Both the position numbers and the translations under genes were made by a program. Below, piece after piece: positions 5,987 to 19,963 of a DNA stretch of 44,488 nt. Origin of the DNA: Escherichia phage vB_EcoD_Opt212; the sequence record NC_073055.1, one strand, 5' to 3'. The stretch's first letter is position 1. Every line of letters starts with the position of its first letter. The notes beneath the pieces are model-generated. The model made no database searches, was not told the DNA's origin, and worked only from the letters and a program-made list of their open reading frames with translations.

Positions 5987-6147
5987 TCTGTCAATCTCCT
6001 GTAGTTACGAACTAATGTGAGGCGCGAGATAGTGCGGCGAGTACCACACTTAGGGTGTGAAATAGTCACGTTGCCGTTTGCTTCTTCTGTCACGAAGTAA
6101 GTCAGTCGCGTGGCCTTACTCCGCCAGCGTTCAGGTTGCTTGTTCAT
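5983..6147 (-). CDS. small hypothetical protein (54 aa)
   Basis: ATGA overlaps at both ends; GGAG RBS; not in ORF track. Confidence 0.4.
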   Translation of the reverse strand: MNKQPERWRSKATRLTYFVTEEANGNVTISHPKCGTRRTISRLTLVRNYRRLTE

Positions 6148-6413: not shown

Positions 6414-6422
6414 TTTGGCCCC

Positions 6423-6728: not shown

Positions 6729-6909
6729 CGTTCAGTCCTCATGTTGGTGTGCAACCAATATTAATCACGCGCATGAAAAAGTTGATCGCTATCTGCTGCA
6801 ACGGCAAACTGCATTTCCCACTCTCCATTATCCAACCCGCATTGGTTGCCTAGTTCATCCGCGACCGCACTTCGCATCATGCTGCCGTGTATTTTGCAAT
6901 CCCCGGATT

Positions 6910-7083
6910 TTATTCAGTCTCAGACGAGGGGGGCCATTGACCCCCGTCTAGTCTGAAAGACTGGGGTGCTGTCCCGCTGTCCCGCTCCTCTGGAAGCCGC
7001 GCCATCCGGGGCGGGACGGGGGTGCTGTCCCGCTTTGTCCCGCCCGCTTTTTGTCCCGCTTTTTGTCCCGCTTACTTTATGCA
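6910..7083. repeat. GTCCCGC-iteron element, copy A
   Basis: 75-bp block identical to 34727..34801, then 6 direct and 1 inverted (T)GTCCCGC copies; overall similar to 34727..34899. Confidence 0.8.
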
Positions 7084-7157
7084 GTTTTATTGCATAACTA
7101 TTCATAATAATCACACTACACGGCAACCAATACGACCAGTTAAAAACACCCAAAATG

Positions 7158-7240
7158 GCAACCAATGCGCGCAAAATTTAATCTTTTAGCGATATGGGAA
7201 TTCCCATATCGGCAACCAATACGCGCAAAATTTAATCTTT
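7158..7240. promoter_or_regulatory. 22-bp perfect palindrome CGATATGGGAATTCCCATATCG (7190..7211) flanked by two ~29-bp direct repeats
   Basis: direct reading; repeats GGCAACCAAT(G/A)CGCGCAAAATTTAATCTTT; second copy overlaps primase stop. Confidence 0.7.
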
Positions 7241-9496
7241 CAGGTCGTCATCGGTCGCAGAAAGCGTGATGGGTATATTCGTTTTGATGACTATATTCGA
7301 CGACCCATAGATGGCCCCGGTGTGCGGATCGGTATAAAAACCTAACACTCCGCGCTCAACCATATCGTCTATTGCCTTCGTAGATGTGCCACCTTTTGCC
7401 AATCCCGCCTGGCGGACAATTGCCGATTTGCTGAATCCGGTATGGTCCGGGTTATCTTCCATCAGTTTTTCCAGTGCCGCATAAAGCACTTTCTCTTTTT
7501 CGTTGCGCGGTCCTGCGGCATTCTCGTCCTTAACCGCGGCCTTGCCAGCCGCCTTCGCCTGTTCTATAGCGAACGGTGCCAGGGCGACCGGTACGAGGTA
7601 GAGAGTCTCGTCGCGTGGCGTGGAGGCAATCGGCTTGACGTCCCATCCGGCAACCACGTCGCCGAAGTCTGGCCCGGTGCTGGTGGACTGGTGCGCCTCG
7701 AACGCTTCTGACTTGCGGAGATCCACCTTCACCTTGCACTTGAGCAGGACGAAGCCACGCGGCGCTTGCTTGATGCCGTTACGTGCCTTTTCGTGATACA
7801 GGTTCAATTGGCCTGGCTGGTTGTCGTCCGGCTGTTCCAGGAAGAACGCAGAATCGACAGCGCCATGCAGCGCGCCGGACCCGCGGGGGGTTCTGCTGCC
7901 GTTTGCACCCTTCGCCGGGTGGTGGATGACGCCCGCACTGCCACCTGTATTTTCCGCGATGGCCTTCAGCGCTTTGACCACTTCACCCATATCGCTGGCG
8001 TTGTTCTCGTCGAACGGTTTAGCATCCGCGGACCGCAACGCAACAGTCTGGTTGAGTGAGTCGAACGCCACCAGGCCAACCGGTTCGCCGTTAGCGGTGC
8101 GGTTGATGAAGCTGATAACTTCACGCAAGCCGGATTTGCTGGTGATATCCCAGCCGCGTGATTGCAGATCGATAATGTGCAGCTTGTCCAGGTCGTGCTC
8201 ATATTTAATCTGCAATGCTTCTTTGCGCTGGTTAGAGGCTTCGCCACCTTCCGCGTCGAAATAGAAGCAATGAGACTGGACGACCTTCGCACCGCCGAAC
8301 GGAATACCAGCGGCAACCGCGCCCATCTGCCCCAGCACGTAGAACGATTTACCGATGTTCGACTCACCCGCCATATACCAGGTTGATTTAAAGTTAATCA
8401 ACCCCTCGATAATCGGGTCGTGCTTACTGAACAGCGCAACCGGCTCGTTATCCAGATCCGCATCGGTGCACACGCCGTATTCTTCGCCGTCGCCAACCGC
8501 ATCCACAATATGTTCATATAAGGATTCGACTTCCTCGTCGTCCAGCCCTGGGAGGATGGCGGCGATTTGCTTACGGGACATGTTGTGCGGCTCGACGTTC
8601 AGGTGGTCCGGTATCCCGATGAGACGTAGCGCCAGGTGCTGGTGTCTGTTCAGTTCCGAGCAACACTCGTTGCCGGTGTGCATACACTTGAAACGGATCT
8701 CGCCATCCTTAACCATGATAGCGGTGGACCCTTCACCACTGTGCAGGTGTTCGTTCGGGCATGGCACTTCATAACCACGACCGGACGACAGCGGTTCGAA
8801 TCCTGCCTGGAAGCACCAGTCCAGAATGCCGTCTGCCACTGCGTCGTCGCCCTGGGTAAGCTCGCGGCGTACTTCCTCTTTTTCCACCCCCAGCTTATCA
8901 GCCAGGCGAAGCAGACGACGGACGCGGGCACGTTTGCCGTAGTGACACTTAACAACCGATTGCTGGTGAGGCAGGTACATAAGGCGGTTTGTGTCTTTCG
9001 TGCAATCGTCGAAGTCCACATCTGACAGGCCCAGTTGGTGTAATAGTGCATACTGGACGCGGCCCAGGTCTTCCGCCGGTACAGGCTTGTCAGTGAGCAC
9101 CAGGAAACGAGCGCAACGCGTGCCGCCTTTCAGCGGGTGGCGGTCGCCGGTAGTGGTGTGGAAGACGTGCTCCAGTCCCGCGTCGATGAACGCCTTACGG
9201 CAGCGGCGCAGGGTGCGGGTGTCGGTGCGGTCAATATCAAAGAACAGGATCGAGCGGTCCACGGCACTGGTCTTGCGGCGTAAGCCGTCACGGGTATAAG
9301 CCACAATACCATCAGCCTTACGCTTGCGGCGCGCATACTCCGCTTTATCTTCCGTCTTGTTGATATGCACCGAGGATATTTCTTTCGCATCATTAATAAA
9401 TTCGAAAAACTCATCGGTGGTCATCTGGAAGTTTTCCGCCCTGGCTTTTTCGCCTTTTTTAGCGGGTCGTGTTACAGCGAATTTAATTAAGCTCAT
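7232..9496 (-). CDS. DNA primase/helicase (primase-polymerase-like N-terminus, P-loop NTPase, C-terminal wHTH)
   Basis: 754 aa; Walker A-like GESNIGKSF; Cys/His cluster; acidic FFDIDRTD segment. Confidence 0.75.
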   Translation of the reverse strand: MSLIKFAVTRPAKKGEKARAENFQMTTDEFFEFINDAKEISSVHINKTEDKAEYARRKRKADGIVAYTRDGLRRKTSAVDRSILFFDIDRTDTRTLRRCRKAFIDAGLEHVFHTTTGDRHPLKGGTRCARFLVLTDKPVPAEDLGRVQYALLHQLGLSDVDFDDCTKDTNRLMYLPHQQSVVKCHYGKRARVRRLLRLADKLGVEKEEVRRELTQGDDAVADGILDWCFQAGFEPLSSGRGYEVPCPNEHLHSGEGSTAIMVKDGEIRFKCMHTGNECCSELNRHQHLALRLIGIPDHLNVEPHNMSRKQIAAILPGLDDEEVESLYEHIVDAVGDGEEYGVCTDADLDNEPVALFSKHDPIIEGLINFKSTWYMAGESNIGKSFYVLGQMGAVAAGIPFGGAKVVQSHCFYFDAEGGEASNQRKEALQIKYEHDLDKLHIIDLQSRGWDITSKSGLREVISFINRTANGEPVGLVAFDSLNQTVALRSADAKPFDENNASDMGEVVKALKAIAENTGGSAGVIHHPAKGANGSRTPRGSGALHGAVDSAFFLEQPDDNQPGQLNLYHEKARNGIKQAPRGFVLLKCKVKVDLRKSEAFEAHQSTSTGPDFGDVVAGWDVKPIASTPRDETLYLVPVALAPFAIEQAKAAGKAAVKDENAAGPRNEKEKVLYAALEKLMEDNPDHTGFSKSAIVRQAGLAKGGTSTKAIDDMVERGVLGFYTDPHTGAIYGSSNIVIKTNIPITLSATDDDLKD

Positions 9497-9506
9497 TGCC
9501 GTGGCC

Positions 9507-9836
9507 TTACTTAGAAGTTTTATTATTGCGTACCCAGGAGCGCACTGTGCTCTGATTAATTCCGGTTAGCTCTGCAATCATCGCCCATGATTTGCCCTCG
9601 GCGCGCAAACGGATAACCTGTTTTTTGTATTCTTCCATTTCTTCATTGTGTTTTTGCAGCTTGCTTGCTGCCGTGCCGTTGAGCAATTCCAGCTTCGCGG
9701 TAAGCTCCTTCTCAGCACGCGATAATCTGGACACTTCAAATAACAGAGTATCCACCGCATTTGTGTAATACCAGGATTTACCCGCTTCGCCGCGGATTGC
9801 ATTAGATAACACTTCAATTGCTTCTTTGATATTCAT
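9507..9836 (-). CDS. small HTH DNA-binding protein (putative regulator)
   Basis: 109 aa; C-terminal HTH (GKSWAMIAELTGINQSTVRSWV); first gene of leftward operon. Confidence 0.6.
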   Translation of the reverse strand: MNIKEAIEVLSNAIRGEAGKSWYYTNAVDTLLFEVSRLSRAEKELTAKLELLNGTAASKLQKHNEEMEEYKKQVIRLRAEGKSWAMIAELTGINQSTVRSWVRNNKTSK

Positions 9837-9971
9837 AATTCAGTCTCCTGTTGGTTAATGACCAATGAAACTACACCTAAAACCACAAGGTGTCAAATCC
9901 TTTGGATATTGAAACGGGCGCGCACGCGTGTAATAATAATTCCCGTCTCATTGTCTTGTCTCTTATTGGTT

Positions 9972-10006
9972 AGCGCCGGTGCATTTTGCCTCGGCGCTTT
10001 TTTTTT
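9972..10006 (+). terminator. terminator-like hairpin with T-run
   Basis: AGCGCCG...CGGCGCT stem then T9; lies upstream of rightward early promoter. Confidence 0.4.
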
Positions 10007-10016
10007 GAATTAGTTG

Positions 10017-10046
10017 TTGACACCCATCCTGCAACCAATCTATCAT
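10017..10046 (+). promoter_or_regulatory. sigma70-like promoter (TTGACA-N18-TATCAT)
   Basis: hexamers read directly; spacer contains TGCAACCAAT motif. Confidence 0.45.
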
Positions 10047-10242
10047 TCACTCCGTCGACAGGATGCAGGACGCAAACTGGAGAGGGGCAACGAAGGGGCC
10101 GGATCGAAGTGTCAGGATTCCCAACCGTGATTATATAACCAGGTCCACTACCCGAACGGGAGAACGCGTAACCTGGCAATATGTTAAGGCCACCGACGAA
10201 GTTAACTGCCGACACCTAAACTTAACCAATCGGAGATATACC

Positions 10243-10758
10243 ATGTTTGAGCAAATCGTAAACCTGATCACTCGCGGAGTAGTAGCACTGGAAACCATTG
10301 CAAAGCATTATGAAACCGTTGGCGCTGCCGTTGGTAAACAGGAAGATAAGAAGCCGTCTAAGGCCAAAAAAGAAGTTGTCGAAGATGACGACGATGAAGC
10401 TGAAGACGAAAAACCGGCTAAATCTAAAAAAACACCGGCGAAATGTAAGGCTAAAAAAGAAGTCGTAGAAGATGACGACGACGATGCCGAAGACGAAAAA
10501 CCGGCTAAGTCTAAAAAAGCACCGGCGAAAGGCAAAGGTAAGAAAGATGCCGATCCGCTGGCAGAGATGCGCGACGAAATCAAACAGTATGCCGCGATTA
10601 TTGCCGGTGGTGACGATGACGACGCGAACGACGAATTTGATGATCTGCTGGAAGCGTTCGAAATTAAATCCATCGCCAAGCTGGAAGACGACGACGTTGA
10701 AGACTTCCACAAAGATTTAAAAGAAATCGTCGAAACCTATTTCGAACTGGAAGATTAA
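10243..10758 (+). CDS. acidic/basic tandem-repeat protein
   Basis: 171 aa from ATG with GGAG RBS (track ORF extends upstream without RBS); two ~28-aa repeats KAKKEVVEDDDDEAEDEKPAKSKK; acidic C-terminal half. Confidence 0.6.
   Translation: MFEQIVNLITRGVVALETIAKHYETVGAAVGKQEDKKPSKAKKEVVEDDDDEAEDEKPAKSKKTPAKCKAKKEVVEDDDDDAEDEKPAKSKKAPAKGKGKKDADPLAEMRDEIKQYAAIIAGGDDDDANDEFDDLLEAFEIKSIAKLEDDDVEDFHKDLKEIVETYFELED
10357..10533 (+). repeat. tandem ~84-bp coding repeat (2 copies)
   Basis: near-identical DNA and protein repeats inside 10243..10758. Confidence 0.7.
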
Positions 10759-10806
10759 TGTATTCCGGCCCGCTAATCTGCGGGCCTATTTTTAGAGGAC
10801 GAGACA

Positions 10807-11058
10807 ATGGCACGCTTCACGCTAATCGAGGCGGTGGACTCCCGCGACCAGCGCCCGTACTATTGGCTATTCGAACGCATCGGCAGCTTTCAGTCACGCG
10901 TTGCCGTAATAGATAAACGCCGTAACACCCCCGCGCAAATTAAGCGCACCACCTTTACTAACCCCGACTTTTATATTTGGGCGGATTCCAATCTGGAATA
11001 TGTTCGCTTCGCAGTTGCATCCGAAGCAAAAACAATCGACCGCTGGGAGACAAAATAA
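10807..11058 (+). CDS. hypothetical protein
   Basis: 83 aa, AGAGGA RBS. Confidence 0.55.
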   Translation: MARFTLIEAVDSRDQRPYYWLFERIGSFQSRVAVIDKRRNTPAQIKRTTFTNPDFYIWADSNLEYVRFAVASEAKTIDRWETK

Positions 11059-11237
11059 TGAAATTCTTCGTCATGGCAACTTGCCACGAATTAAACGATC
11101 ACACTTCTTTTATTGTTGAAAACACCAACGCAAGCAATTGCTTTGTGGACGCGCAAAATGAAGTTAAGCGCCGAGTCGAAAAAGCGGGCCTGGCTAATGT
11201 GAAATATGTAATTGTCCAGTTTACACGGGTGGAATAA
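11058..11237 (+). CDS. small hypothetical protein (59 aa)
   Basis: start overlaps previous stop; internal ATG of track ORF 10977..11237. Confidence 0.4.
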   Translation: MKFFVMATCHELNDHTSFIVENTNASNCFVDAQNEVKRRVEKAGLANVKYVIVQFTRVE

Positions 11238-12667
11238 TGGCGATTAAACCAAAACGTAAAACGCAATCCGGTAGCAACACGGAACACTCATTACTCGGGC
11301 CGTCCGGTGCTAAAAAATGGATGGGTTGCCCTGCCGCCCTGGTGGTGGAAAAAGATATCCCGAACGAATCCGGGCAAGCGGCGATTAACGGTACGAGTAT
11401 GCACACCGTATCAGAGGTCGTGCTAAACCGCATTATCGCCGGTGAGAAGCTGATAACCGCGAAGACGTATAAAGGGTGCTACGTCGAGAACGAAGGCAAG
11501 GGGCCAGTAAAGGCCCACCCGAAAGCACCGAAAGGCGGCGTACTGGTCAACGACGACATGGTGAAACAGTGCGACGCGTACATCGACCACTGGCGACCGC
11601 TCCTCGAAGTGGCGGAGTTTGTTCAGCTTGAGATGCGCGCCGATCTGACCCGCGTCCTTCACTCAGGCTTCGAGATCGACGGCAACCTGGTTAAGACGTT
11701 CGGTACTGCCGATATGGTTATGGTCATGAAGAAGACCGACGGCACGTACATGCTGATTGTTGGCGACCTGAAGACGGGACGACATAAGGTCGAGGCGAAA
11801 GAAAACAAACAGCTTATGTTGTACGCGCTCGGCCTGCTGCGCAAGCTGAAAACTATGTACGACATTACGACCGTGCGCCTGGTTATCTTCCAGCCGTATT
11901 GCGGCGGGGCGTCGGAGTGGGATATTTCGGTAGAAGCCCTGGAGATATTCGCGAAGTTTGCGTCCAAGCGTGCTATCGCCGCCCTGGAAGCGTACGCCCG
12001 CGGCAAAAAGGGACTCACCCGTGCCGACTTCAGACCGAGCGTTGATGCGTGTCAGTGGTGCCGATTTGCGGATCAGTGTAGCGCCCGCGCTAAGGCCGCA
12101 ATCGACACGATGACCCCACCAACGGCAACAGACGAAGACCTGGGCGACGACGTGAGTATTGCGACAGAGGAAGAATGCGCCAATCACGATCGCAATATGA
12201 CCCGCGAAGCCCGCAAAGCGGCACGACGTGCGAAGCGTGGTAAGAAAGAAGCGGCCCCAGGCGCTATGACCGCCGCAGAACTGCGCAAGGCATATGAAGG
12301 TTTAGACGCAATGCGCCAGCACATCAAGGCTATAGAGTCCGCGGTATTCAAGGCGGTTATGGCTGGCGAAGGCGAATCGCTGGGCCTCAAAATGGTTGCC
12401 GGTAAGGAAGGGATCCGCAAGTGGGCGGACGAAAGCGAAGTGATTGAAATCTTCACGAAGGCCCGGATCAAGCGCGATGTTATGTACAAAGAAACATTAC
12501 TCAGCCCTACTGATGCCGAGAAGGTACTGAAGGACGAGAAGCCGAAAGTGTGGGCAAAGTTGTGTGATAAAATAACGCGCGCACCAGCTAAACCGGTATT
12601 AGCACCCATCGACGACCCGCGCCCTGCGTGGTCTGTAGCTACTGACGAGGACTTAAGCAATGAATAA
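11237..12667 (+). CDS. PD-(D/E)XK nuclease, DUF2800-like with Cas4-type Cys cluster
   Basis: 476 aa; N-terminal HSLLGPSGAKKWMGCP; GDLKTG and QLMLYALG motifs; CQWCRFADQC cysteines. Confidence 0.75.
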   Translation: MAIKPKRKTQSGSNTEHSLLGPSGAKKWMGCPAALVVEKDIPNESGQAAINGTSMHTVSEVVLNRIIAGEKLITAKTYKGCYVENEGKGPVKAHPKAPKGGVLVNDDMVKQCDAYIDHWRPLLEVAEFVQLEMRADLTRVLHSGFEIDGNLVKTFGTADMVMVMKKTDGTYMLIVGDLKTGRHKVEAKENKQLMLYALGLLRKLKTMYDITTVRLVIFQPYCGGASEWDISVEALEIFAKFASKRAIAALEAYARGKKGLTRADFRPSVDACQWCRFADQCSARAKAAIDTMTPPTATDEDLGDDVSIATEEECANHDRNMTREARKAARRAKRGKKEAAPGAMTAAELRKAYEGLDAMRQHIKAIESAVFKAVMAGEGESLGLKMVAGKEGIRKWADESEVIEIFTKARIKRDVMYKETLLSPTDAEKVLKDEKPKVWAKLCDKITRAPAKPVLAPIDDPRPAWSVATDEDLSNE

Positions 12668-12902
12668 AGTATTCGCAATATTATTGATGTTTGTTATCGG
12701 CGCGCTGGGCTTTATCCTGCATTGTGTGCATGGCGTGTTAATGGTGGCGTGGATGATTCGCCATCCGACCCGCTGGCTTGACGACGGATATAGTGACGCT
12801 GCCGTCGACTGGGTGGAGAAGAACATCGACCGACCGCCGTTAAGCTGGGTAGAGAACGCTACCGACTACGTTACCAGAAATCTTTTTAATAAAAGTGCTT
12901 GA
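12660..12902 (+). CDS. small membrane protein
   Basis: 80 aa, N-terminal TM segments. Confidence 0.5.
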   Translation: MNKVFAILLMFVIGALGFILHCVHGVLMVAWMIRHPTRWLDDGYSDAAVDWVEKNIDRPPLSWVENATDYVTRNLFNKSA

Positions 12903-12927
12903 CCGCTTAGGCGCAACCAAGTAGATT
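12899..12927 (+). promoter_or_regulatory. sigma70-like promoter (TTGACC-N17-TAGATT)
   Basis: spacer contains GCAACCAAG motif; upstream of 12993 gene. Confidence 0.4.
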
Positions 12928-12992
12928 AGCAACCAAGCCGAACGGGGTGGCTCATAATAACCCCGATACATGTGAAAATGAGGAATTGGAAA

Positions 12993-13775
12993 ATGGCTAA
13001 AGTCAACCTGAAAAATGTGCGCGTATGTTTCCTTAAAATTTGGGAACGTGATACCCCTAAACAGGATGGACAAAAACCGGCATACCGTGCAGTGATTCTC
13101 CTTGATAAAGAAGATCCGCAGGTGGACAAAGTGGAAGCGGCAGCGCGCGCAGTGCTCACCGACAAGCTGAAATCCGAGAAGAATGCTGATAAGTGGATGG
13201 ACCGCCACTACGCCCAGGATTCTAAGGAATGCGCAGTTCGCGACGGTGACGAGCGCGACGAAGTAACCGAAGAATTCGAAGGCATGTTGTACATCAACGC
13301 CAAATCGTTCAAACAGCCGATCATTCAAACGTCACTCGGCGAGAAGCAGACGGAACAAGGTCTGACCGTAGAAGGCGACGAGATCGAAGGCCAGGAGATC
13401 TACTCCGGTTGTTATTGCAATGTGTCCCTGGATATTTGGGCGTGGAACAATACCAACGGCAAGGGTCTCGGGGCTGGCTTGCTGGGTCTGCGATTCCGTG
13501 AAGACGGCGAAGCCTTCGGAGGTGGCGGGTCTTCTTGCTCCGATGAAGACCTGGACAACGACGACGAAGACGAAGCACCGCGCAAGTCCAAAAAGTCAAA
13601 ACGTCGTGATGACGATGATGAAGATGACAAGCCGCGCAAGTCCAAGAAATCCAAGCGCCGCGATGACGACGATGAGGAAGATGAAAAACCTCGCAAACGC
13701 CGCAAGTCCCGCGATGACGAAGATGAGGACGAAGACGACGAAGACGAAGCACCACGTAAACGTCGCCGCCGTTAA
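12993..13775 (+). CDS. DUF2815-like ssDNA-binding protein with charged repeat tail
   Basis: ATG with AGGAA RBS; N-terminus MAKVNLKNVRVCF; C-terminal repeats PRKSKKSKRRDDDDE. Confidence 0.65.
   Translation: MAKVNLKNVRVCFLKIWERDTPKQDGQKPAYRAVILLDKEDPQVDKVEAAARAVLTDKLKSEKNADKWMDRHYAQDSKECAVRDGDERDEVTEEFEGMLYINAKSFKQPIIQTSLGEKQTEQGLTVEGDEIEGQEIYSGCYCNVSLDIWAWNNTNGKGLGAGLLGLRFREDGEAFGGGGSSCSDEDLDNDDEDEAPRKSKKSKRRDDDDEDDKPRKSKKSKRRDDDDEEDEKPRKRRKSRDDEDEDEDDEDEAPRKRRRR
13562..13772 (+). repeat. tandem coding repeats (acidic/basic modules, 3 copies)
   Basis: repeated DDDDEDDKPRKSKKSKRR units at protein and DNA level. Confidence 0.6.
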
Positions 13776-13794
13776 GGGCAAAGCCCACTATTCA

Positions 13795-13818
13795 AGCCCG
13801 CTTAATGCGGGCTTTTTA
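13795..13818 (+). terminator. rho-independent terminator
   Basis: stem AGCCCGC/GCGGGCT followed by T5. Confidence 0.6.
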
Positions 13819-13833
13819 ACGGGACAACGAAAA

Positions 13834-14004
13834 ATGCATATTAAAGCCAGCGAAGTAAAAGTCGGAATGCAAGTATGGTCCAAGCTACTGGGGGAATATT
13901 TCACAGTTGCCGAGATTCGCAACAATGGAGAAGAGATCGCCCTGTCCGACGGCATCTTCTCCATGATCGGCAGCGCTGACGCCGTAGTGAGGATAAAGCA
14001 ATGA
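13834..14004 (+). CDS. small hypothetical protein (56 aa)
   Basis: ATG after terminator; ATGA overlap with DNA polymerase start. Confidence 0.4.
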   Translation: MHIKASEVKVGMQVWSKLLGEYFTVAEIRNNGEEIALSDGIFSMIGSADAVVRIKQ

Positions 14005-16292
14005 AAGACTTCGAACGTCTGTTTCTCGACACAGAGACATTTAGCGGGGTGGACCTGAAGAAAGTTGGGGCGTACGCCTACGCAGAGCACCCAACCACCG
14101 AGATTATGATTTGCACATACGCCATCGACGAGGGCCGCGTGCAGACATGGGATTGCACTGAATCCCCCACAATGCCGCGTGAACTGCGCAAGGCGCTCCG
14201 CCATGTTTCCCGCAAGAAAGCAAAAATAGTGATGGCTAACGGCCTCCTGTTTGACCGCCTGGTTATTCGCGAGAAGTGGGGTATTGACCTGCCGGTAAGC
14301 CAGATCGAAGACACCATGATTATGGCCTTTCGCCACGCGCTGCCCGGTAGTCTCGACATGCAATGCCAGGTGCTGGGCGTTGACGCAGAACACGCGAAGG
14401 ATAAGGCTGGCAAGGCGCTGATCAAACGCTTCTGTAAGCCAACCCCTAAGACTTACAAAATCCGCCGCTACACTCGCGAGACTCACCCTGAAGAATGGGC
14501 CAAATTTCTGCGATATGCCGCGCTGGATATTATCGCGATGCGTGAGGTCTACTGGCGCATACCGGACTGGGGTAATACTCCGAAGGAAGATGAAATCCTG
14601 CTTATCGACCAGTTGATCAACGACCGCGGCTTCTATGTGGACGTTGACCTGGCGAACGCCGCGATCAAAGCGGTGCAGGCGCATAAGGAAGAATTGAAGG
14701 AGGAAGCCTGGGAGCGATTTGGCGGTAAACTGACAGGCAATGACTTCCTGCCAATCCTGCGTGATATCGCCCCGGCGTTCACAATCCACAACGCGCAGAA
14801 ATCCACACTTAACGACCTGCTTGAAGACCCGGACTTCCCCGACGAAGGCAAAGCGCTTATCGAAATGCGCCTCGGTGCGTCATCAACGGCATCGACTAAG
14901 TACAATCCGCTAGTTAACGGCTTATCCGCAGATGGTCGCCGCCGTGGGTGTCTTCAGTATGGCGGCGCAAAGCGCACGCTGCGCTGGGCGGGTAAAGGCT
15001 TCCAGCCTCAAAACCTGGCACGCGGCGAGTATAGCGACGATCACGAAGGGAAGATTAAGCGCCGCGAAGGCGAGAGCGACGTTGCTTTTTGGGTCCGGTC
15101 GCACATGCTCACCAACGGCATCAATTCCCTGTTACGCGGGACCGCGCACTGGGCGTATGACATATCTAAGCTAACAGCCTCTACCGTTCGCGGGTGCATT
15201 ATCCCGGCTAAGGGCAAGAAGTTTGTCGTAGCGGACTACTCCAACGTGGAAGGGCGTGGACTTGCCTGGATCGCTGGCGAGAAAACCGCGCTAATGGTGT
15301 TTAAGGCCGGTCGTGATATCTATTGTGAGACTGCCGGTAAGATGTTCGGCCTGGACCCGGACTACATTAAAGCTAACCGCAAGGACTTACGCCAGATCGG
15401 TAAGGCGTGCGAATTGGGGCTGGGCTATGGTGGCGGCGTCGCGGCGTTCTTGCAGTTCGCTAAAAACCTGGGCCTCGACCTTTACGCGATGGCGGACGTC
15501 ATGAAGGGCACATTCCCCGATCACATTTGGGCAGCGGCTAAACGGGGTTATGAGTACGCCCGTATTAACGAAGCGAAACGCCCACCGAAGCCCGGCAAGA
15601 AAGACGAGCGCCCAACATACATACTGCCTAAAAACGTTTGGCTGACGTGCGACGCGATCAAACGTATGTGGCGTGAGGCTCACCCGAAGACGGTAGCCTT
15701 TTGGGCCGAGCTTGAGGACGCGGTGTTGTGTGCAATCCGCAATCCGGGCAAAGCATACTGGGCGGGCGCGAACGTTCGCCCGGACGGTAGAAAAGCGCTC
15801 AAGATTGTCCGTACGAAGGCGAAGCACGACCCAACCTTTGACGAGGAGCGCGACGACCCGAACGCCGCGGGGTGGTGGTTGAAAATTGAGTTGCCGTCGG
15901 GGCGCATCATGAGCTACCCAGGCATCGCGCTGTCTGTCACTACCGAGATTGACGAGGACACCGGCAAGAAACGCACCAGCACACGCATCAAATACCAGGG
16001 CGAGAATCAGACGACGCGCCAGTGGGGTTTCCAGTACACCTACGGCGGCAAATTGACGGAGAACATCGTACAGGCGTTGTGCCGCGATATTCTCGCATGG
16101 TCCATGCCAGGCGTTGAAGCTGCGGGGTATGAGATCGTCCTGTCAGTACACGACGAATTGATCACAGAAGTGCCGGACACCGACGACTACACGACCGAGG
16201 AGCTTTGCGCGCTGATGTGCGACCTGCCTATTTGGGCGAAAGGTTTCCCACTTGCCGCAGAGGGCGATTGCATGTACAGATACAGGAAGTAA
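14001..16292 (+). CDS. DNA polymerase, family A, with 3'-5' exonuclease domain
   Basis: 763 aa; exo motif FLDTETFS; pol motif B RQIGKACELGLGYGG; motif C LSVHDEL. Confidence 0.9.
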   Translation: MKDFERLFLDTETFSGVDLKKVGAYAYAEHPTTEIMICTYAIDEGRVQTWDCTESPTMPRELRKALRHVSRKKAKIVMANGLLFDRLVIREKWGIDLPVSQIEDTMIMAFRHALPGSLDMQCQVLGVDAEHAKDKAGKALIKRFCKPTPKTYKIRRYTRETHPEEWAKFLRYAALDIIAMREVYWRIPDWGNTPKEDEILLIDQLINDRGFYVDVDLANAAIKAVQAHKEELKEEAWERFGGKLTGNDFLPILRDIAPAFTIHNAQKSTLNDLLEDPDFPDEGKALIEMRLGASSTASTKYNPLVNGLSADGRRRGCLQYGGAKRTLRWAGKGFQPQNLARGEYSDDHEGKIKRREGESDVAFWVRSHMLTNGINSLLRGTAHWAYDISKLTASTVRGCIIPAKGKKFVVADYSNVEGRGLAWIAGEKTALMVFKAGRDIYCETAGKMFGLDPDYIKANRKDLRQIGKACELGLGYGGGVAAFLQFAKNLGLDLYAMADVMKGTFPDHIWAAAKRGYEYARINEAKRPPKPGKKDERPTYILPKNVWLTCDAIKRMWREAHPKTVAFWAELEDAVLCAIRNPGKAYWAGANVRPDGRKALKIVRTKAKHDPTFDEERDDPNAAGWWLKIELPSGRIMSYPGIALSVTTEIDEDTGKKRTSTRIKYQGENQTTRQWGFQYTYGGKLTENIVQALCRDILAWSMPGVEAAGYEIVLSVHDELITEVPDTDDYTTEELCALMCDLPIWAKGFPLAAEGDCMYRYRK

Positions 16293-16296
16293 GATT

Positions 16297-16488
16297 ATGA
16301 AAGCAGAAATGAGCATTATGCGCGCTGGCGCGACTGACAATGACGAGATTCGAATCGTCCTTAGACTGGAACGTGGCAAGACCATAACGGCGCTTGTCAC
16401 GCCTGAAAACCTGGCGCTGGCGCTAACCGGTCGATCGGATATACCGGTAGACCTTCGTCTGCGTAACGTGGAATTACAAACCAAATGA
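16297..16488 (+). CDS. small hypothetical protein (63 aa)
   Basis: internal ATG with AGGAAG RBS. Confidence 0.4.
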   Translation: MKAEMSIMRAGATDNDEIRIVLRLERGKTITALVTPENLALALTGRSDIPVDLRLRNVELQTK

Positions 16489-16763
16489 CACCAGAAGGCA
16501 AGATTCAAAGTCACCTTATGAAGCTGGTGAAAGCCGTCGGCGGATTCTGCCGTAAAGTGGCATGGGAGGGGCGCGCAGGTGCGCCTGACCTGATTATCAT
16601 CATCAACGGCAAAATAGTGTTCGTCGAAGTGAAGCAACCCGGCGGCAAACCGAAGCCGCACCAGGTACGTGAACATGAGCGAATGGCCCGCCGCGGTGCT
16701 GACGTTCGCGTTATCGACAACATATCCGACTGCGATTTATTGGTTGCTGAATTGGTCGCATAG
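16485..16763 (+). CDS. VRR-NUC domain nuclease
   Basis: 92 aa; GAPDLIIIINGKIVFVEVKQPGGKPKPHQ matches the VRR-NUC pattern. Confidence 0.65.
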   Translation: MTPEGKIQSHLMKLVKAVGGFCRKVAWEGRAGAPDLIIIINGKIVFVEVKQPGGKPKPHQVREHERMARRGADVRVIDNISDCDLLVAELVA

Positions 16764-16803
16764 CGGTATAGTGTGCCGGTTATCCATATCGAGGATTTTA
16801 GAG

Positions 16804-16977
16804 ATGATTGAAGAAAAACGTTGTAGTAATTGCGGCTGTGTAAAGCCGCTATCCCAGTTCCACAAATACACCGGTAAGACTGCGCGCAGTCCAGACGGGT
16901 ATCGGGCAGAGTGCAAATCGTGCCGCAATAAGAAAGAGCGCGAACGGCAGCGCCGCTACCGTGCAGAACAAAAATAA
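16804..16977 (+). CDS. small zinc-ribbon protein (57 aa)
   Basis: CSNCGC...CKSCRN cysteine pairs; GAGGA RBS. Confidence 0.45.
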   Translation: MIEEKRCSNCGCVKPLSQFHKYTGKTARSPDGYRAECKSCRNKKERERQRRYRAEQK

Positions 16978-16984
16978 TTAATAC

Positions 16985-17008
16985 GGCGGGCTTGTCCCGC
17001 CATTTTTG
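16985..17008 (+). terminator. rho-independent terminator
   Basis: GGCGGG/CCCGCC stem then T5. Confidence 0.6.
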
Positions 17009-17020
17009 GGAGACATGACG

Positions 17021-17239
17021 ATGAAAGAACACTACCGACTCACCAAGCTGGGCGAATGTAAACCGGGCGATCGCGTATGGTTTATCGCGGGCATGAATGA
17101 TCCGCTGCCGTTGACGGTGTGCTGGCAAAAATTTAAGAGCTTCCGGGCTACCGGTGTGCACATCGGACACGCCACCAACTACGACGCCACAAAAAGGAAC
17201 TGGAACAGTGAAACCGAAGTCTGGAAAAAGGCGGAATAA
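17021..17239 (+). CDS. hypothetical protein
   Basis: 72 aa; GGAG RBS; alternative ATG at 17015. Confidence 0.45.
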   Translation: MKEHYRLTKLGECKPGDRVWFIAGMNDPLPLTVCWQKFKSFRATGVHIGHATNYDATKRNWNSETEVWKKAE

Positions 17240-17243
17240 AGAT

Positions 17244-18668
17244 ATGGCACGTTTCCGACGTCGCGAATATCAGAAGTTGATAACCGCGTTCATCCTCAAG
17301 CATAAGCGCTGCAATATTTGGGCGACAATGGGGTCGGGTAAAACCGGCGCGACCATGTGGGCGCTGAATAAAATGTTCCAGACTGGCATCCTGTCCAACC
17401 AGGATGACCGCGTACTGGTGCTGGCCCCGCTGCGCGTTGCGTCCGGCACATGGCCCCCGGAACAGGAGAAATGGCGCTTCCCAGCCTTGCTGGTAGTAGA
17501 CGGCACTGGGCCAGAGAAGGACCGCATCGCTGCGCTTGAGAGCGACGCTAACGTGGTTTGTATTAACTATGATGTAGTTGAGTGGCTGGTCGACTATTAC
17601 GGCGATGCGTGGCCCTTTACGGTCGTTGTTGCCGATGAATCGACTAAGCTGAAAGGCTATCGTAGCAAGCAGGGGAGCAAGCGCGCCCGCGCACTGGCAG
17701 CGATTGCACATAAACACGTCAAGCGCTGGATTAACCTTACCGGCACACCCGCACCAAACGGACTGAAAGACCTATGGGGGCAAACGTGGTTCATCGACGG
17801 CGGCGAACGCCTCGGCAGTAGCTATAAGGCATTTACCGACCGCTGGTTCATTAGCAAGCCTGTTAAGCCTGGCAGCTTCACTATGCAGCACGCTCCGCTA
17901 AAGAACTCCGAGAAAGAGATACAACAACGTCTGTCAGATGTATCCCTCACCGTTGACGCGGCGGAATACTTCGGGTGCGACAAGCCAATCTATACGCCGG
18001 TTGTTGTGGACCTGCCGAAGAAAGCGCGTAAGATTTATGACCAGTTTGAAAGCGAGCTATTTGCAGAACTGGAAAGCGGAACAGTGGAAGCGGCGAACGC
18101 GGCGTCGAAGACAATTAAGTGCCTTCAGCTTGCTTCCGGCGCGGTGTATAAGGTGGACGAAGACGGCGAACGGACCGACGAGTGGGTGAAGATTCACGAC
18201 GCGAAGCTGGACGCGCTGGAAAGTATCGTGGAGGAGTTGAACGGTGCGCCGTTGCTCGTTGCGTATCAGTATAAGCATGACCTGGCACGTCTTAAGAAGA
18301 AATTTCCGCACGGCGTTGCGTTGGGTAAAGGAAAGCAGGGCAATAAGGATATGGAAGCATGGAACAGGGGCGAGATCCCCATCATGTTTGCACACCCGGC
18401 ATCGGCGGGCCACGGCCTTAACTTGCAGGACGGCGGTCATCACCTGGCAATCTTCTCCGACACCTGGAACTTTGAACACTTTTCGCAGATCGTTGAACGT
18501 ATCGGGCCGGTTCGCCAGATGCAAGCCGGACACCCTCGACCAGTATTCGTCTACATTATCCAGGCTCGCGGGACACTGGACGAATTGGTCGCCGAGCGTC
18601 GCGACAGTAAGCGAGACATTCAGGACGACTTGATGGAATACATGAAAGCTAAGAAGGCGCGCAAATGA
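17244..18668 (+). CDS. SNF2-family (DEAD-like) helicase
   Basis: 474 aa; Walker A GSGKTG; DExx box VVADEST; LTGTPAPN motif; start moved to ATG after upstream stop. Confidence 0.85.
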   Translation: MARFRRREYQKLITAFILKHKRCNIWATMGSGKTGATMWALNKMFQTGILSNQDDRVLVLAPLRVASGTWPPEQEKWRFPALLVVDGTGPEKDRIAALESDANVVCINYDVVEWLVDYYGDAWPFTVVVADESTKLKGYRSKQGSKRARALAAIAHKHVKRWINLTGTPAPNGLKDLWGQTWFIDGGERLGSSYKAFTDRWFISKPVKPGSFTMQHAPLKNSEKEIQQRLSDVSLTVDAAEYFGCDKPIYTPVVVDLPKKARKIYDQFESELFAELESGTVEAANAASKTIKCLQLASGAVYKVDEDGERTDEWVKIHDAKLDALESIVEELNGAPLLVAYQYKHDLARLKKKFPHGVALGKGKQGNKDMEAWNRGEIPIMFAHPASAGHGLNLQDGGHHLAIFSDTWNFEHFSQIVERIGPVRQMQAGHPRPVFVYIIQARGTLDELVAERRDSKRDIQDDLMEYMKAKKARK

Positions 18669-18865
18669 CTATTGCGAAAATGACAATCTGGTCACTGTTT
18701 GACGGCAGCGGCTTTCGTATGCCAGAGAAAAAGCCTGTATTCGTTGAAAAAGGGTACTCGAAGCAGTATAGTCGCCTCGGAGGCAAATCAGCCCGCACAA
18801 AATTAATCCGGTCGCTCACTCCGCGCGGCTTCGCGATAGCGGTTAACGAGGAAAATTTAAAATGA
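18665..18865 (+). CDS. hypothetical protein
   Basis: 66 aa, ATGA overlaps. Confidence 0.45.
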   Translation: MTIAKMTIWSLFDGSGFRMPEKKPVFVEKGYSKQYSRLGGKSARTKLIRSLTPRGFAIAVNEENLK

Positions 18866-19179
18866 CATTCGAAGCCATCGATTTTTCGGTTGCAATGACT
18901 AACCAGTTATTCTCCTACGACAGCAAAACCGGCGTCATTCGTCTGAAGTCCACCGGCTGCAAAATTGGCAACCTCAATACCGCCGATGGCGGAACACGTA
19001 TCGAATACAACGGCAAGACGCTGTCTGGCGCACGCGTGGCGTGGATTATTGAGACGGGCAATACAATCCCTCCAGGCTTCGCAGTTGTGTGCCGCCAGCG
19101 CACTCCAGGGCACTACGGCAACCGCATAAGCAACCTTTATCTGGTAGACGTCGCACGCGACCCGAACTTTTATGCGTAA
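18862..19179 (+). CDS. HNH/NUMOD4-like endonuclease homologue, catalytic His not evident
   Basis: 105 aa; YDSKTGVIRLK, EYNGKTLSGARVAW, GNRISNLYLV pattern resembles phage HNH_3 proteins but DH motif replaced by CRQR. Confidence 0.45.
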   Translation: MTFEAIDFSVAMTNQLFSYDSKTGVIRLKSTGCKIGNLNTADGGTRIEYNGKTLSGARVAWIIETGNTIPPGFAVVCRQRTPGHYGNRISNLYLVDVARDPNFYA

Positions 19180-19184
19180 ATTGG

Positions 19185-19213
19185 TTGCATAATCATATTG
19201 GTTGCATTATCTT
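19185..19213 (+). promoter_or_regulatory. candidate promoter (TTGCAT-N17-TATCTT) within tandem ATTGGTTGCAT motifs
   Basis: hexamers read directly; immediately precedes a terminator hairpin, so assignment is uncertain. Confidence 0.3.
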
Positions 19214-19246
19214 AAGGGTGTTCCGAAGGGAACGCCCTTTTTTTTA
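19214..19246 (+). terminator. rho-independent terminator
   Basis: GGGTGTTCC/GGAACGCCC stem followed by T8. Confidence 0.65.
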
Positions 19247-19262
19247 ATATGAGGATTTGACG

Positions 19263-19505
19263 ATGAAACGATTCTTTTTAGATTACGACGGTGATTTGCG
19301 GTTATGGGTGTGCATGGTGCTGTTCTTATTCTTTTGTCTCCTGCTGCCGATTTCCTGCACGTATAACCTCGATAAATATGAATGCCGTATTGTCTACGCA
19401 GAACTAACAGGTCGTAACACCCAGTGGCGCTATGGCACTTGCTGGGTTGAAATGGATGGCAAATTTATACCACGCAAAGAAATTCGCATGACGGAGATTA
19501 AATAA
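19263..19505 (+). CDS. small membrane protein
   Basis: 80 aa; hydrophobic segment WVCMVLFLFFCLLLPI; GAGGA RBS. Confidence 0.5.
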   Translation: MKRFFLDYDGDLRLWVCMVLFLFFCLLLPISCTYNLDKYECRIVYAELTGRNTQWRYGTCWVEMDGKFIPRKEIRMTEIK

Positions 19506-19963
19506 TGAAAATTTTACAAGAAGAGAAAGCGTATTGGGTAGCACAGTGTCTTGAAGCCCGCGAGAAAGCGGAAGGAGCTACCGCGCTGGCAAATACCTAC
19601 CTGGCTAGCTATGAAGAAGAAGAGAAGGTCCGAAAGGAATTAGAGGAACGCTTCGAACTGCTGGGCGAACTGATTACCATTATGCAGCGCACCGGATACA
19701 CAACATCCGTATCGCTCACCCGGCTAACTGCCGATGGTCTGCGTGAGCATTGCAAACGTGCAGAAGAATACGTCCGACCGAAAGGACGCACAACGAAGAT
19801 CGACCGTAAAGACTTGGTGCTTATCGCGTGGCGAGCAAACGGCAGCTACTATTCCGATAGCCGACCGCTCAGTAGGGCGGAGCTATCCCGAGTCCAACGC
19901 GTGCTATCCAGTGGCAAGAAAACCGCCCTGTATGCGATAGATCCCGACTATGACGGAGAATGA
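19505..19963 (+). CDS. hypothetical protein
   Basis: 152 aa, coupled to flanking genes. Confidence 0.55.
   Translation: MKILQEEKAYWVAQCLEAREKAEGATALANTYLASYEEEEKVRKELEERFELLGELITIMQRTGYTTSVSLTRLTADGLREHCKRAEEYVRPKGRTTKIDRKDLVLIAWRANGSYYSDSRPLSRAELSRVQRVLSSGKKTALYAIDPDYDGE

Follow-up and report, generated by a model that had tools for sequence, protein, structure and literature searches.

The DNA replication and recombination block of the Dhillonvirus phage vB_EcoD_Opt212: conserved core enzymes and small interleaved genes

The T7 set of DNA metabolism proteins comprises the gp4 primase-helicase, the gp5 polymerase, the gp2.5 SSB (a protein binding single-stranded DNA) and annealase, the gp6 exonuclease and the gp3 endonuclease I. 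Jerseyvirus, Chivirus, Enc34/Nazgul-like phages and many phages of Firmicutes carry a duf2800-gp2.5-polA module that can also include VRR-NUC and SNF2 genes. The duf2800-gp2.5-polA set has been named as a module (PMC8093625), and the replication module of Enc34 has been described along with its SSB homologue, which binds ssDNA (PMC5686142). The replication-recombination module of Dhillonvirus is also well documented already, and as a module it is not novel.

The window that we analyzed is a stretch of 44,488 nucleotides from Escherichia phage vB_EcoD_Opt212 (NC_073055.1), in which positions 11237-18668 of the plus strand are an ordinary DNA replication and recombination block of a Dhillonvirus (HK578-like) Escherichia coli phage (Table 1). 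Five core genes, all on the plus strand, encode a DUF2800 nuclease, a DUF2815/gp2.5-like SSB, a family-A polymerase, a VRR-NUC nuclease and an SNF2 ATPase, with five small open reading frames (ORFs) of 80, 56, 63, 57 and 72 aa interleaved among them. The original prediction had named these five families, and Pfam and PHROGs profile searches reproduced them at the same positions on the plus strand without moving any ORF to a different family; long antisense ORFs within the block matched no PHROG family. The 7.4-kb block has 92.8-96.8% nucleotide identity to Dhillonvirus phages (best 25 of the records listed), and at least 80% of it is covered in 135 records. Relatives including HK578, TheodorHerzl (Bas14), Oekolampad (Bas18), SECphi4 and Zumzum share its gene content and gene order, with isolate-level differences only: Opt212 keeps an intact 63-aa ORF in comparison with Bas14 and Bas18, its polymerase lacks the intein of AV129, and its SSB tail has four repeat blocks while those of SECphi4 and AV129 have three. 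The five-gene order and the adjoining primase-helicase recur in Jerseyvirus wksl3 and Chivirus iEPS5, and Staphylococcus phage IPLA35 has the first three genes in the same order, and only those, within the 16-kb region searched. With DUF2800 homologues in 1418 phage records from hosts of many phyla, these comparisons and the published descriptions cited above agree with the earlier view of a known conserved set.

Conserved members of the module are also located upstream of 11237, which had been overlooked previously. The replicative helicase is the divergent primase-helicase on the opposite strand, not the SNF2 protein, and it adjoins the module at the same position in Jerseyvirus and Chivirus. 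Two further upstream ORFs are conserved with Jerseyvirus (phmmer against wksl3, E=2e-6 and 5e-7). Genes of anti-restriction type are plentiful nearby, including Dam, a 'Lar-like' ORF and, just downstream of the block, a Dcm gene with an internal deletion.

Table 1. Features predicted in and around the Opt212 replication and recombination block
Feature	Coordinates	Strand	Evidence and remarks
Replicative primase-helicase, 754 aa	7232..9496	-	phrog_3228 (1146 bits), Pfam AAA_25; divergent
171-aa acidic repeat protein and 83-aa protein (two ORFs)	10243..11058	+	phrog_3127, phrog_4965
DUF2800 nuclease, 476 aa	11237..12667	+	Pfam, PHROG matches
80-aa ORF, predicted N-terminal membrane anchor	12660..12902	+	phrog_11211; 8-nt overlap with nuclease gene
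Promoter-like site TTGACC-17-TAGATT	12899..12927	+	Consensus scan; overlaps stop of 80-aa ORF, upstream of SSB gene
Predicted gp2.5-like/DUF2815 ssDNA-binding and annealing protein, 260 aa	12993..13775	+	PF10991, phrog_112
Predicted intrinsic-terminator hairpin AAGCCCGC-TTAAT-GCGGGCTT and T-run	13794..13817	+	Between SSB gene and 56-aa ORF/polA
56-aa ORF	13834..14004	+	phrog_10102; stop overlaps polA start (ATGA)
Family-A DNA polymerase, 763 aa	14001..16292	+	Pfam, PHROG, Taq/Klenow PDB alignment
63-aa accessory ORF	16297..16488	+	phrog_1222; overlaps VRR-NUC start
Stand-alone VRR-NUC nuclease, 92 aa	16485..16763	+	PF08774, PDB matches
57-aa CxxC...CxxC zinc-ribbon protein, basic tail	16804..16977	+	phrog_5558 (E=2e-18)
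Predicted terminator-like hairpin GGCGGGCTTGTCCCGCC then ATTTTT	16985..17008	+	Consensus scan; after zinc-ribbon ORF
72-aa ORF	17021..17239	+	phrog_9291; directly upstream of SNF2 gene
Minimal SNF2-family ATPase, 474 aa	17244..18668	+	SNF2-rel_dom, phrog_62

The DUF2800 nuclease matches its Pfam model over the full length (PF10926, positions 1-368 of 368; 225.6 bits with a cut-off of 21), together with PDDEXK_1. The N-terminal part forms a nuclease domain of the Cas4/RecB PD-(D/E)XK type, whose four-cysteine cluster, C31 and C272-x2-C275-x5-C281, brackets the nuclease core. Across 104 divergent homologues of about 30% identity, none of these four Cas4-type cysteines varies, nor does any of E132, D159, D177, K179, Q192 and Y196, which make up the catalytic PD-(D/E)XK positions and the QxxxY motif. 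The earlier suggestion of an Fe-S nuclease is strengthened by this invariance, and the cysteine pattern suggests that the protein may carry an iron-sulfur cluster; the preprint on a near-identical nuclease, B14T, mentions neither iron nor the cysteines (bioRxiv 10.64898/2026.07.14.737667). In the AlphaFold2 model (AF2; mean pLDDT 91.7), the best Foldseek matches are the Argonaute-associated ACE1, AdnA, Cas4 SSO0001, Dna2, AddB and Exo5, which have a similar core fold and the D...D-x-K...Q-xxx-Y and C...C-x2-C-x5-C patterns, yet are just 12-17% identical with TM-scores of at most 0.53. Some Fe-S PD-(D/E)XK nucleases are fused to helicases, whereas the Opt212 protein is stand-alone and continues through a disordered linker (residues ~295-335) into an extra conserved C-terminal domain (~345-470). 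This confidently folded domain of about 130 residues has no match among solved structures. The invariant four cysteines and the conserved C-terminal domain are what our analysis adds to this known nuclease.

The same cysteine pattern and fold class, and Foldseek matches to SSO0001 and a type I-C Cas4, could also be taken as signs of a true CRISPR-type Cas4 that takes part in acquiring spacers or interferes with host CRISPR, a role suggested for certain Cas4 genes of phages. We consider this extremely improbable, as the window has neither cas1/cas2 nor a CRISPR array (repeat searches of 9400-19600 gave coding repeats only), the additional C-terminal domain is not present in Cas4, the conserved neighbours of the gene encode the SSB and the polymerase, and resection nucleases of the AdnA/AddB type match equally well.

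The nuclease is identical at 471 of 476 residues to TheodorHerzl/Bas14 gp45 (Bas14_0045, or 'B14T'), which has been studied as the nuclease that triggers retron IX (bioRxiv 10.64898/2026.07.14.737667). According to the same preprint, B14T is an active enzyme that cuts a DNA stem-loop at its base and cleaves retron msDNA, with activity abolished by D177A/K179A; the activity so far shown for its nuclease domain, purified as residues 18-295, is limited to structure-specific endonucleolytic cuts and does not include processive 5'-3' resection. Bas14 escapers with prematurely truncated B14T remain viable (bioRxiv 10.64898/2026.07.14.737667), so that the nuclease is dispensable for plaque formation and not an essential part of the replisome. 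Dispensability in the laboratory and cleavage of retron msDNA would suit another reading, in which host takeover or counter-defence, and not phage recombination, is the main task of both nucleases and the SNF2 ATPase: they could break down host DNA or the nucleic acids of defence systems, or repair restriction or CRISPR breaks, and would travel with the replisome genes only through simultaneous expression. The B14T authors themselves raise the repair of defence-inflicted breaks (bioRxiv 10.64898/2026.07.14.737667), and the nearby Dam, Dcm-remnant and 'Lar-like' genes are in keeping with such a role. However, cleavage of msDNA triggers immunity and thus harms the phage, so it is not counter-defence, and the order of nuclease, SSB and polymerase genes is strictly kept from phages of Firmicutes through proteobacterial phages (PMC8093625), which indicates that the nuclease is functionally paired with the annealase and polymerase. 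We therefore find the takeover or counter-defence reading unlikely.

The SSB scores 109.7 bits (cut-off 26) with the Pfam family Enc34_ssDNA-bd (former DUF2815; PF10991) and matches PDB entries 4KLK (7.5e-12), 4JG2 and 5ODJ. Going by PHROG alignment offsets and by how relatives are annotated, it most likely starts at the ATG at 12993 rather than at 12972. An OB-fold core of about 185 residues is followed by a 75-residue mixed-charge repeat tail, in which 34 acidic and 28 basic residues alternate block by block and which ends in PRKRRRR. The acidic/aromatic C-terminal end typical of gp2.5-type SSBs is absent from this tail, while homologues in Chivirus, Staphylococcus and Rhodobacter phages have acidic/hydrophobic ends (WEDEV, DEDFL and SLLDF). 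Judged by its sequence, the protein joins a variant tail to a genuine gp2.5/DUF2815 core, and since the tail is atypical for gp2.5-type proteins, it may contact its partners differently from gp2.5 in T7. For the SSB of SECphi4, structural homology with gp2.5 has been reported along with the triggering of Retron-Eco8 (bioRxiv 10.1101/2022.08.27.505566), and a Dhillonvirus SSB triggers type III Sir2-HerA (PMC13434337).

The polymerase scores 59.7 bits with DNA_pol_A (cut-off 34.3) and aligns with Taq and Klenow structures in PDB over the motif A-B region. The polymerase motifs are DYSNVE at 412 (D412), RQIGK...GYGG at 464-478 (R464/K468) and HDE at 717 (H717-D718-E719). An N-terminal 3'-5' exonuclease domain is present without a 5'-3' exonuclease domain. 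The earlier call of an exonuclease-proficient PolA is in line with intact 3'-5' exonuclease motifs Exo I (D10/E12), Exo II (F84-D85) and Exo III (Y172/D176), from which proficiency would be expected; D10, E12, F84, Y172 and D176 are kept across four divergent phage polymerases, as is the acidic character of position 85. Profile evidence for the domain consists of a weak DEDD-nuclease match in PDB (E=0.017); PF01612 was not detected in our Pfam search of the Opt212 polymerase, and HHpred has been reported to find it in that of SECphi4 (bioRxiv 10.1101/2022.08.27.505566). The orthologous polymerase of SECphi4 is a published trigger of Borvo, and Borvo escapers alter its exonuclease cleft (bioRxiv 10.1101/2022.08.27.505566).

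The VRR-NUC protein scores above the Pfam cut-off (PF08774; 26.1 bits with a cut-off of 23.8) and matches PDB entries 4QBN (E=5e-22) and 4QBO (E=8e-14). These stand-alone bacterial and viral proteins have the same length (92-93 aa), align end to end and keep the catalytic D...ExK motif, for which the putative Opt212 residues are D35, E48 and K50. The 4QBN and 4QBO proteins are reportedly dimeric Holliday-junction resolvases, and by analogy the Opt212 enzyme may have the same activity. The SNF2 protein scores 43.9 bits with SNF2-rel_dom (cut-off 24.9), has motifs I (GSGKT at 30), II (DES at 131) and III (TGTP at 166) and a putative motif VI (QIVERIGPVRQ at 415), and aligns through residues 29-463 with the Sulfolobus Rad54-like structure 1Z63. 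Its predicted C-terminal lobe scores 16.6 bits with Helicase_C, under the cut-off of 23.5, and has QxxxRxxxxRQ at 415. Offsets in PHROG alignments and the annotation of relatives make the ATG at 17244 the most likely start, rather than the GTG at 17154.

The small ORFs had previously been called uncharacterised, and this mostly stands, except that the 56-aa ORF and the terminator upstream of it bear published phage escape mutations. Pfam and NCBIfam gave no match above cut-off for any of the five and sub-threshold matches for the zinc-ribbon ORF only, the 63-aa ORF is partly deleted in Oekolampad and missing from TheodorHerzl, and the 56-aa ORF tolerates frameshifts, with one present in the Zumzum record. 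These features would be expected of chance ORFs or decaying remnants in intergenic space, but we give that explanation very little credence: all five are intact in nearly every genome compared, each matches a PHROG family (E <= 2e-18), and there are overlaps with neighbouring genes. Their dN/dS values are 0.0-0.21 at dS of 0.03-0.69 (0.02-0.05 for the large enzymes): 0.13-0.21 for the 80-aa ORF, 0.02-0.13 for the 56-aa ORF, and 0.0-0.10 for both the zinc-ribbon and 72-aa ORFs. All five are therefore real genes under purifying selection, and the start and stop overlaps point to co-translation in the operon.

Four of the five are essentially restricted to the genus. Of the 151 phage records with the 80-aa ORF, whose N-terminus is hydrophobic (hydropathy > 2 over residues 1-30), all but a few are Escherichia/Shigella or Dhillonvirus-named, and the same holds for nearly all of the 154 phage records with the 72-aa ORF, which include a single 37% match from Salmonella phage 9NA. 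The 56-aa ORF is limited to Dhillonvirus, with only nine clusters, all at least 86% identical. With identity of at least 80%, the 63-aa ORF is present in about 54 records, of which those listed all belong to Dhillonvirus, and homologues of 63-65% identity are found in Stx prophages. The zinc-ribbon ORF is labelled 'Lar-like' in PHROGs, with weaker matches to N-terminal parts of endonuclease VII/HNH families and no Pfam match above noise. In Chivirus the five core genes have no interleaved ORFs between them, so these ORFs are lineage-specific additions and not core parts; Jerseyvirus has two small ORFs, none detectably related to those of Opt212 (phmmer E > 0.1).

Promoters and terminators were predicted using consensus and folding only, and in the consensus scan the total of such sites is no more than shuffled expectation. 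The 61-nt intergenic region at 13776-13836 folds at -22.2 kcal/mol (z = -3.77), with an 8-bp hairpin as its main element. SECphi4 has an identical hairpin, and published SECphi4 escape mutations map to the loop and 5' flank. A recurrent E21 frameshift of the 56-aa ORF has been published for SECphi18 and SECphi6 escapers, and the ORF has a G5 run at 13890 in Opt212. A SECphi6 escaper has a T->G change in the final codon of its 80-aa ORF; when mapped here, the change turns the -35 hexamer TTGACC of the promoter-like site into GTGACC, and this site may be the functional target. We attribute the escape mutations in these three elements to Borvo.

With the core components established as far as family membership and catalytic motifs go, we consider it likely that the block is an early/middle DNA-metabolism operon that combines a T7-style replisome with recombination-dependent replication and repair through exonuclease/annealase action and junction resolution. 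The primase-helicase, PolA and SSB would copy the genome. From their sequences, we infer replication and recombination roles in Dhillonvirus for the DUF2800 nuclease, VRR-NUC and SNF2 proteins: the nuclease would resect or trim DNA ends and ss/ds junctions, and the gp2.5-like protein would coat and anneal the resulting ssDNA, the two forming an exonuclease/annealase pair comparable to lambda Exo/Beta or T7 gp6/gp2.5. The SNF2 ATPase, which has a dsDNA-translocase core, would remodel or branch-migrate forks and joints, and dimeric VRR-NUC would resolve four-way junctions ahead of packaging. Expression may be segmented, with the promoter-like site before the SSB gene and the terminator before the 56-aa ORF and polA setting the SSB:polymerase ratio. 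The division of labour and the fold classes of the polymerase and SSB are like those of T7. In contrast, the exonuclease is of Cas4/RecB type with a four-cysteine cluster where T7 gp6 is FEN-like, the putative resolvase is a VRR-NUC protein instead of endonuclease I, an SNF2 ATPase is added, and the SSB tail is of mixed charge with a basic, not acidic-aromatic, end. Earlier studies have already examined near-identical relatives of several proteins of this module as triggers of anti-phage defences in bacteria.

The block at window positions 11237-18668 comprises ten genes, all on the + strand, with AT and GC skew consistent with coding on that strand. From the sequence alone, the original prediction had assigned five of them to a DUF2800 nuclease, a DUF2815 SSB, PolA, a VRR-NUC nuclease and an SNF2 helicase, and all five assignments were borne out by profile searches (see table). 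Sequence searches of the PDB gave independent support: the SSB matched three DUF2815 structures, the polymerase matched the Taq/Klenow motif A-B region, the VRR-NUC protein matched the stand-alone nucleases 4QBN and 4QBO from end to end (E=5e-22), and the Sulfolobus Rad54-like enzyme 1Z63 aligned to residues 29-463 of the SNF2 protein. The long antisense ORFs of the block matched no PHROG family and were therefore treated as spurious. An Rfam scan of the whole window found no family reaching its gathering score, and repeat searches of 9400-19600 found no iterons or origin-like arrays, the only repeats there being coding repeats in the SSB tail and in an acidic protein upstream. Overall, the observation was confirmed and its interpretation supported.

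Features of the replication-recombination block and its flanks in the window
Feature	Position	Strand	Basis or remark
Replicative primase-helicase	7232-9496	-	Opposite strand to module
171-aa acidic protein	10243-10758	+	phrog_3127; upstream of module
87-nt tandem duplication	10359-10532		In acidic-protein gene
59-aa ORF	11058-11237		Directly upstream of nuclease
DUF2800 plus PDDEXK_1	11237-12667	+	Pfam and PHROGs profile searches
Promoter-like site	12899-12927		-35 hexamer TTGACC
Enc34_ssDNA-bd (renamed DUF2815)	12993-13775	+	Profile searches; PHROGs label gp2.5-like
SSB tail	13551-13772		75 residues
Gap between SSB gene and 56-aa ORF	13776-13836		61 nt
Terminator-like hairpin	13794-13814		8 bp, GC-rich
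DNA_pol_A	14001-16292	+	Profile searches
VRR_NUC	16485-16763	+	Profile searches
SNF2-rel_dom	17244-18668	+	Profile searches
66-aa ORF	18665-18865		After SNF2
152-aa ORF	19505-19963		PHROGs label 'DNA ligase'

As a textbook phage cassette for replication and recombination in a heavily sequenced genus, the module is already known. At least 80% of the 7.4-kb block is covered at one place in 135 phage records, nearly all of them Escherichia or Shigella Dhillonvirus phages such as Oekolampad/Bas18, Zumzum, SECphi4 and relatives of HK578, with identities of 92.8-96.8% among the best 25 records listed and an identical gene order in annotated relatives. Genomes of this genus are reported to measure 43-46 kb (PMC8594841), and the window, at 44.5 kb, is as long as a complete one. 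Homologues of DUF2800 were found in 1418 phage records, with hosts among the Proteobacteria, Firmicutes, Bacteroidota and Actinobacteria. Searching four distant examples with the window's proteins, we found that the Jerseyvirus wksl3 (a Salmonella phage) and the Chivirus iEPS5 share the window's gene order DUF2800-SSB-PolA-VRR-NUC-SNF2, with a primase-helicase alongside, while Staphylococcus phage IPLA35 has DUF2800-SSB-PolA, and Rhodobacter phage RcAquaphina has DUF2800 and SSB with VRR-NUC further downstream. The description of the module as a known conserved set thus holds, since the order is kept in distant phages and a duf2800-gp2.5-polA module has already been named (PMC8093625); the Enc34 replication module has also been described (PMC5686142). 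The functional unit is wider than the block itself, because the acidic protein and an 83-aa protein upstream of 11237 both have Jerseyvirus homologues and the replicative primase-helicase gene lies nearby. As this gene adjoins the module, we rejected the SNF2 protein as the replicative helicase. The SNF2 orthologue of wksl3 (locus 13977-16442) has 821 aa compared with 474 aa in the window, and so carries about 350 extra residues.

The original prediction also suggested, from a Cas4-like cysteine cluster, that the DUF2800 protein is an Fe-S nuclease. Its cysteines are C31 and C272-x2-C275-x5-C281. The family is large (9923 clusters of 50% identity at E<0.001), and we aligned the window protein with 103 cluster representatives, each about 30% identical to it. 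Fourteen columns are invariant, including all four cysteines, E132, D159, D177, K179, Q192 and Y196. An AlphaFold2 model from this alignment (mean pLDDT 91.7, pTM 0.82) has as its best PDB matches in Foldseek the Cas4-family protein ACE1, AdnA, Cas4 SSO0001, Dna2, AddB, Exo5 and type I-C Cas4. Exactly this cysteine pattern binds a 4Fe-4S cluster in Cas4, AddB, AdnA, Dna2 and Exo5. The invariant cysteines and the fold matches to these 4Fe-4S nucleases make the predicted Fe-S cluster well supported, short of proof. The window nuclease is identical at 471 of 476 positions to gp45 of TheodorHerzl/Bas14 (B14T), the published trigger of retron IX. Mutations that let Bas14 escape retron IX lie in the B14T gene; they include truncations, indicating that the gene is dispensable. 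Expression of B14T triggers retron IX, an effect abolished by D177A/K179A, and the nuclease domain, purified as residues 18-295, cleaves msDNA at the stem-loop base; the preprint mentions neither iron nor the cysteines (all bioRxiv 10.64898/2026.07.14.737667, July 2026).

The same preprint describes the C-terminal part of B14T as disordered (bioRxiv 10.64898/2026.07.14.737667), and here our analysis disagrees. Within residues ~345-470, eight positions are shared by 90% or more of the homologues, and this stretch is modeled with a pLDDT of 90-98 in the full-length protein (94.3 when modeled alone), low confidence being confined to a linker at ~295-335. The conserved positions and high pLDDT contradict the claim of disorder, and this region is predicted to be folded. 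No solved structure resembles the isolated domain in a Foldseek search of the PDB, where the best match has E=1.3. We infer a partner-docking or DNA-binding role for it; as a docking module, it could link the putative Fe-S nuclease with either the gp2.5-like annealase or the replisome.

The OB-fold core of the SSB makes it a clear family member, with an unusual tail. This tail is of mixed charge (34 acidic and 28 basic residues) and built of three to four blocks, each an acidic run and then (A/K)PRKSKKSKRR, with PRKRRRR at the end. It lacks the usual acidic-aromatic end, closing on basic residues where homologues in the Chivirus, Staphylococcus and Rhodobacter phages have the classical acidic/hydrophobic end; the Jerseyvirus SSB has a basic end as in the window. 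The number of tail repeats varies among Dhillonvirus isolates. The SECphi4 orthologue of this SSB triggers Retron-Eco8 (bioRxiv 10.1101/2022.08.27.505566), and another Dhillonvirus SSB triggers type III Sir2-HerA (PMC13434337). The KKEVVEDDDDEAEDEKPAKSKK units encoded by the tandem duplication in the acidic-protein gene look similar to the tail blocks of the SSB; at the nucleotide level, the repeats of one gene are 61-68% similar to those of the other, which may reflect composition only.

The polymerase has pol motifs A, B and C together with Exo motifs I-III, in agreement with the claim that it is exonuclease-proficient; four divergent phage polymerases from this module share the motifs, and the protein lacks a 5'-3' exonuclease domain. 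A profile search of the PDB with the N-terminal domain returned only a weak DEDD-nuclease match, so the proofreading call rests on the motifs and on published HHpred work. Assignment to the DpoZ-type (aminoadenine) polymerases was rejected, the NCBIfam matches being weak (22.9 bits; cut-off, 500). In Escherichia phage AV129 (locus 4205-7393) the polymerase has 1062 aa owing to a 299-aa insertion in motif B, between A469 and C470, which starts with Cys and ends with His-Asn followed by Cys, an intein signature; the window polymerase has no such insertion. In the UNVERIFIED record of Escherichia virus TH13 (~6480-7660), a 589-bp stretch corresponding to window 16214-16802 occurs twice in tandem, running from the 3' end of polA through the 63-aa ORF to VRR-NUC; the duplication is genuine or arose in assembly.

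In Borvo escapers of SECphi4 and SECphi18, polymerase residues T13, E91, D176 and R171 are altered (bioRxiv 10.1101/2022.08.27.505566), and the window polymerase has all four. We mapped the remaining escapers in Table S2 of that study onto the region (bioRxiv 10.1101/2022.08.27.505566); on our reading the relevant block of the table belongs to Borvo, because its polymerase changes are exactly those in the paper's Borvo figure legend. The 61 nt separating the SSB gene from the 56-aa ORF have a folding energy of -22.2 kcal/mol (z = -3.77), their main element being the hairpin followed by a T-run, and the SECphi4 hairpin is identical. In SECphi4, the changes of escapers 2 and 3 fall in the loop of the hairpin and in the 5' flank, and that of escaper 4 in the base adjoining the SSB stop codon. 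SECphi6 escaper 3 alters the last codon of the 80-aa ORF, turning the -35 hexamer of the promoter-like site into GTGACC. A single +1 frameshift, located at a G5 run within the 56-aa ORF, recurs in seven of the nine SECphi18/SECphi6 escapers. Most simply, every one of these changes would reduce or modify the supply of polymerase.

For the frameshift, polarity offers no obvious explanation: the G5 run is also present in the window, at 13890, where the shifted frame would stop only ~21 nt before the polA ATG. The 56-aa ORF ends in a stop that overlaps the start of polA; it could therefore encode a small polymerase partner rather than act as a mere leader, given that its recurrent frameshift escapes a polymerase-sensing defence (Borvo, as attributed here). 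Homology searches place it in Dhillonvirus only (9 clusters, all at least 86% identical), too shallow a set for structure prediction. That the 56-aa product is a polymerase partner and the DUF2800 C-terminal domain a docking module is a joint reading we regard as rather unlikely. Zumzum (~6646 of its locus) carries G6 in place of G5, giving a 48-aa product as in the SECphi18/SECphi6 escapers; IMG/VR holds no contigs with this allele against five with intact G5, so it is rare or a sequencing error.

In all, five small ORFs (80, 56, 63, 57 and 72 aa) are interspersed with the enzyme genes. Compared with six other Dhillonvirus genomes, their dN/dS is 0.0-0.21 (large enzymes, 0.02-0.05), which marks them as real genes. 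Each matches a PHROG family with no assigned function or a nominal one; none reaches a curated cut-off in Pfam (at E up to 10) or NCBIfam, and no homologue of any of them was detected in the modules of Jerseyvirus or Chivirus. The 80-aa, 57-aa and 72-aa ORFs are essentially genus-restricted, the first having a strongly hydrophobic N-terminus. The 57-aa ORF encodes a zinc ribbon (CxxC...CxxC) and a basic tail; of the five, it alone gave sub-threshold zinc-ribbon-type matches in Pfam/NCBIfam, and its PDB sequence search gave only noise. Its product is similar to the N-terminal regions of phage endonuclease VII/HNH families, without having a catalytic domain. The 63-aa ORF is accessory, with ~54 records at no less than 80% identity (all Dhillonvirus among those listed), absence or partial deletion in Bas14 and Bas18, and homologues in Stx-converting prophages (63-65% identity) and T1-like phages (~37%).

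The 66-aa ORF after the SNF2 gene is an in-frame internal deletion remnant of a 237-aa Dcm-like C5 methyltransferase, its first 16 residues fused to the last 50 with loss of the catalytic core, and relatives carry the full gene there. The 59-aa ORF is a variable cassette found by blastn in two of six Dhillonvirus loci; those of the other four that are annotated have a different 62-aa ORF ('gp44') at the same place. The 'DNA ligase' label of the 152-aa ORF, also used in some annotations, looks unsupported: Pfam gives the ORF no match, and a depositor records 'no evidence'.

In the best-supported model, the module provides a T7-like replisome and a recombination toolkit. Families and motifs are observed; the division of labour we infer from the families and the conserved synteny. 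The primase-helicase, PolA and SSB would form the replisome, alongside which the DUF2800 nuclease and gp2.5-like protein would act as an exonuclease/annealase pair, the SNF2 translocase would remodel joints or forks and VRR-NUC would resolve junctions. As a genome-scan finding this matters little. The modest new points are the invariant four-cysteine cluster of the nuclease, the unassigned C-terminal domain of that protein, and the convergence of published escape mutations on a promoter-like site, a terminator-like hairpin and the 56-aa ORF upstream of polA. Several E. coli defence systems sense just these proteins: retron IX responds to the nuclease, Retron-Eco8 and type III Sir2-HerA to the SSB, and Borvo to the polymerase. 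An accurate map of the module's motifs, domains, regulatory elements and accessory ORFs therefore helps in reading escape mutants.
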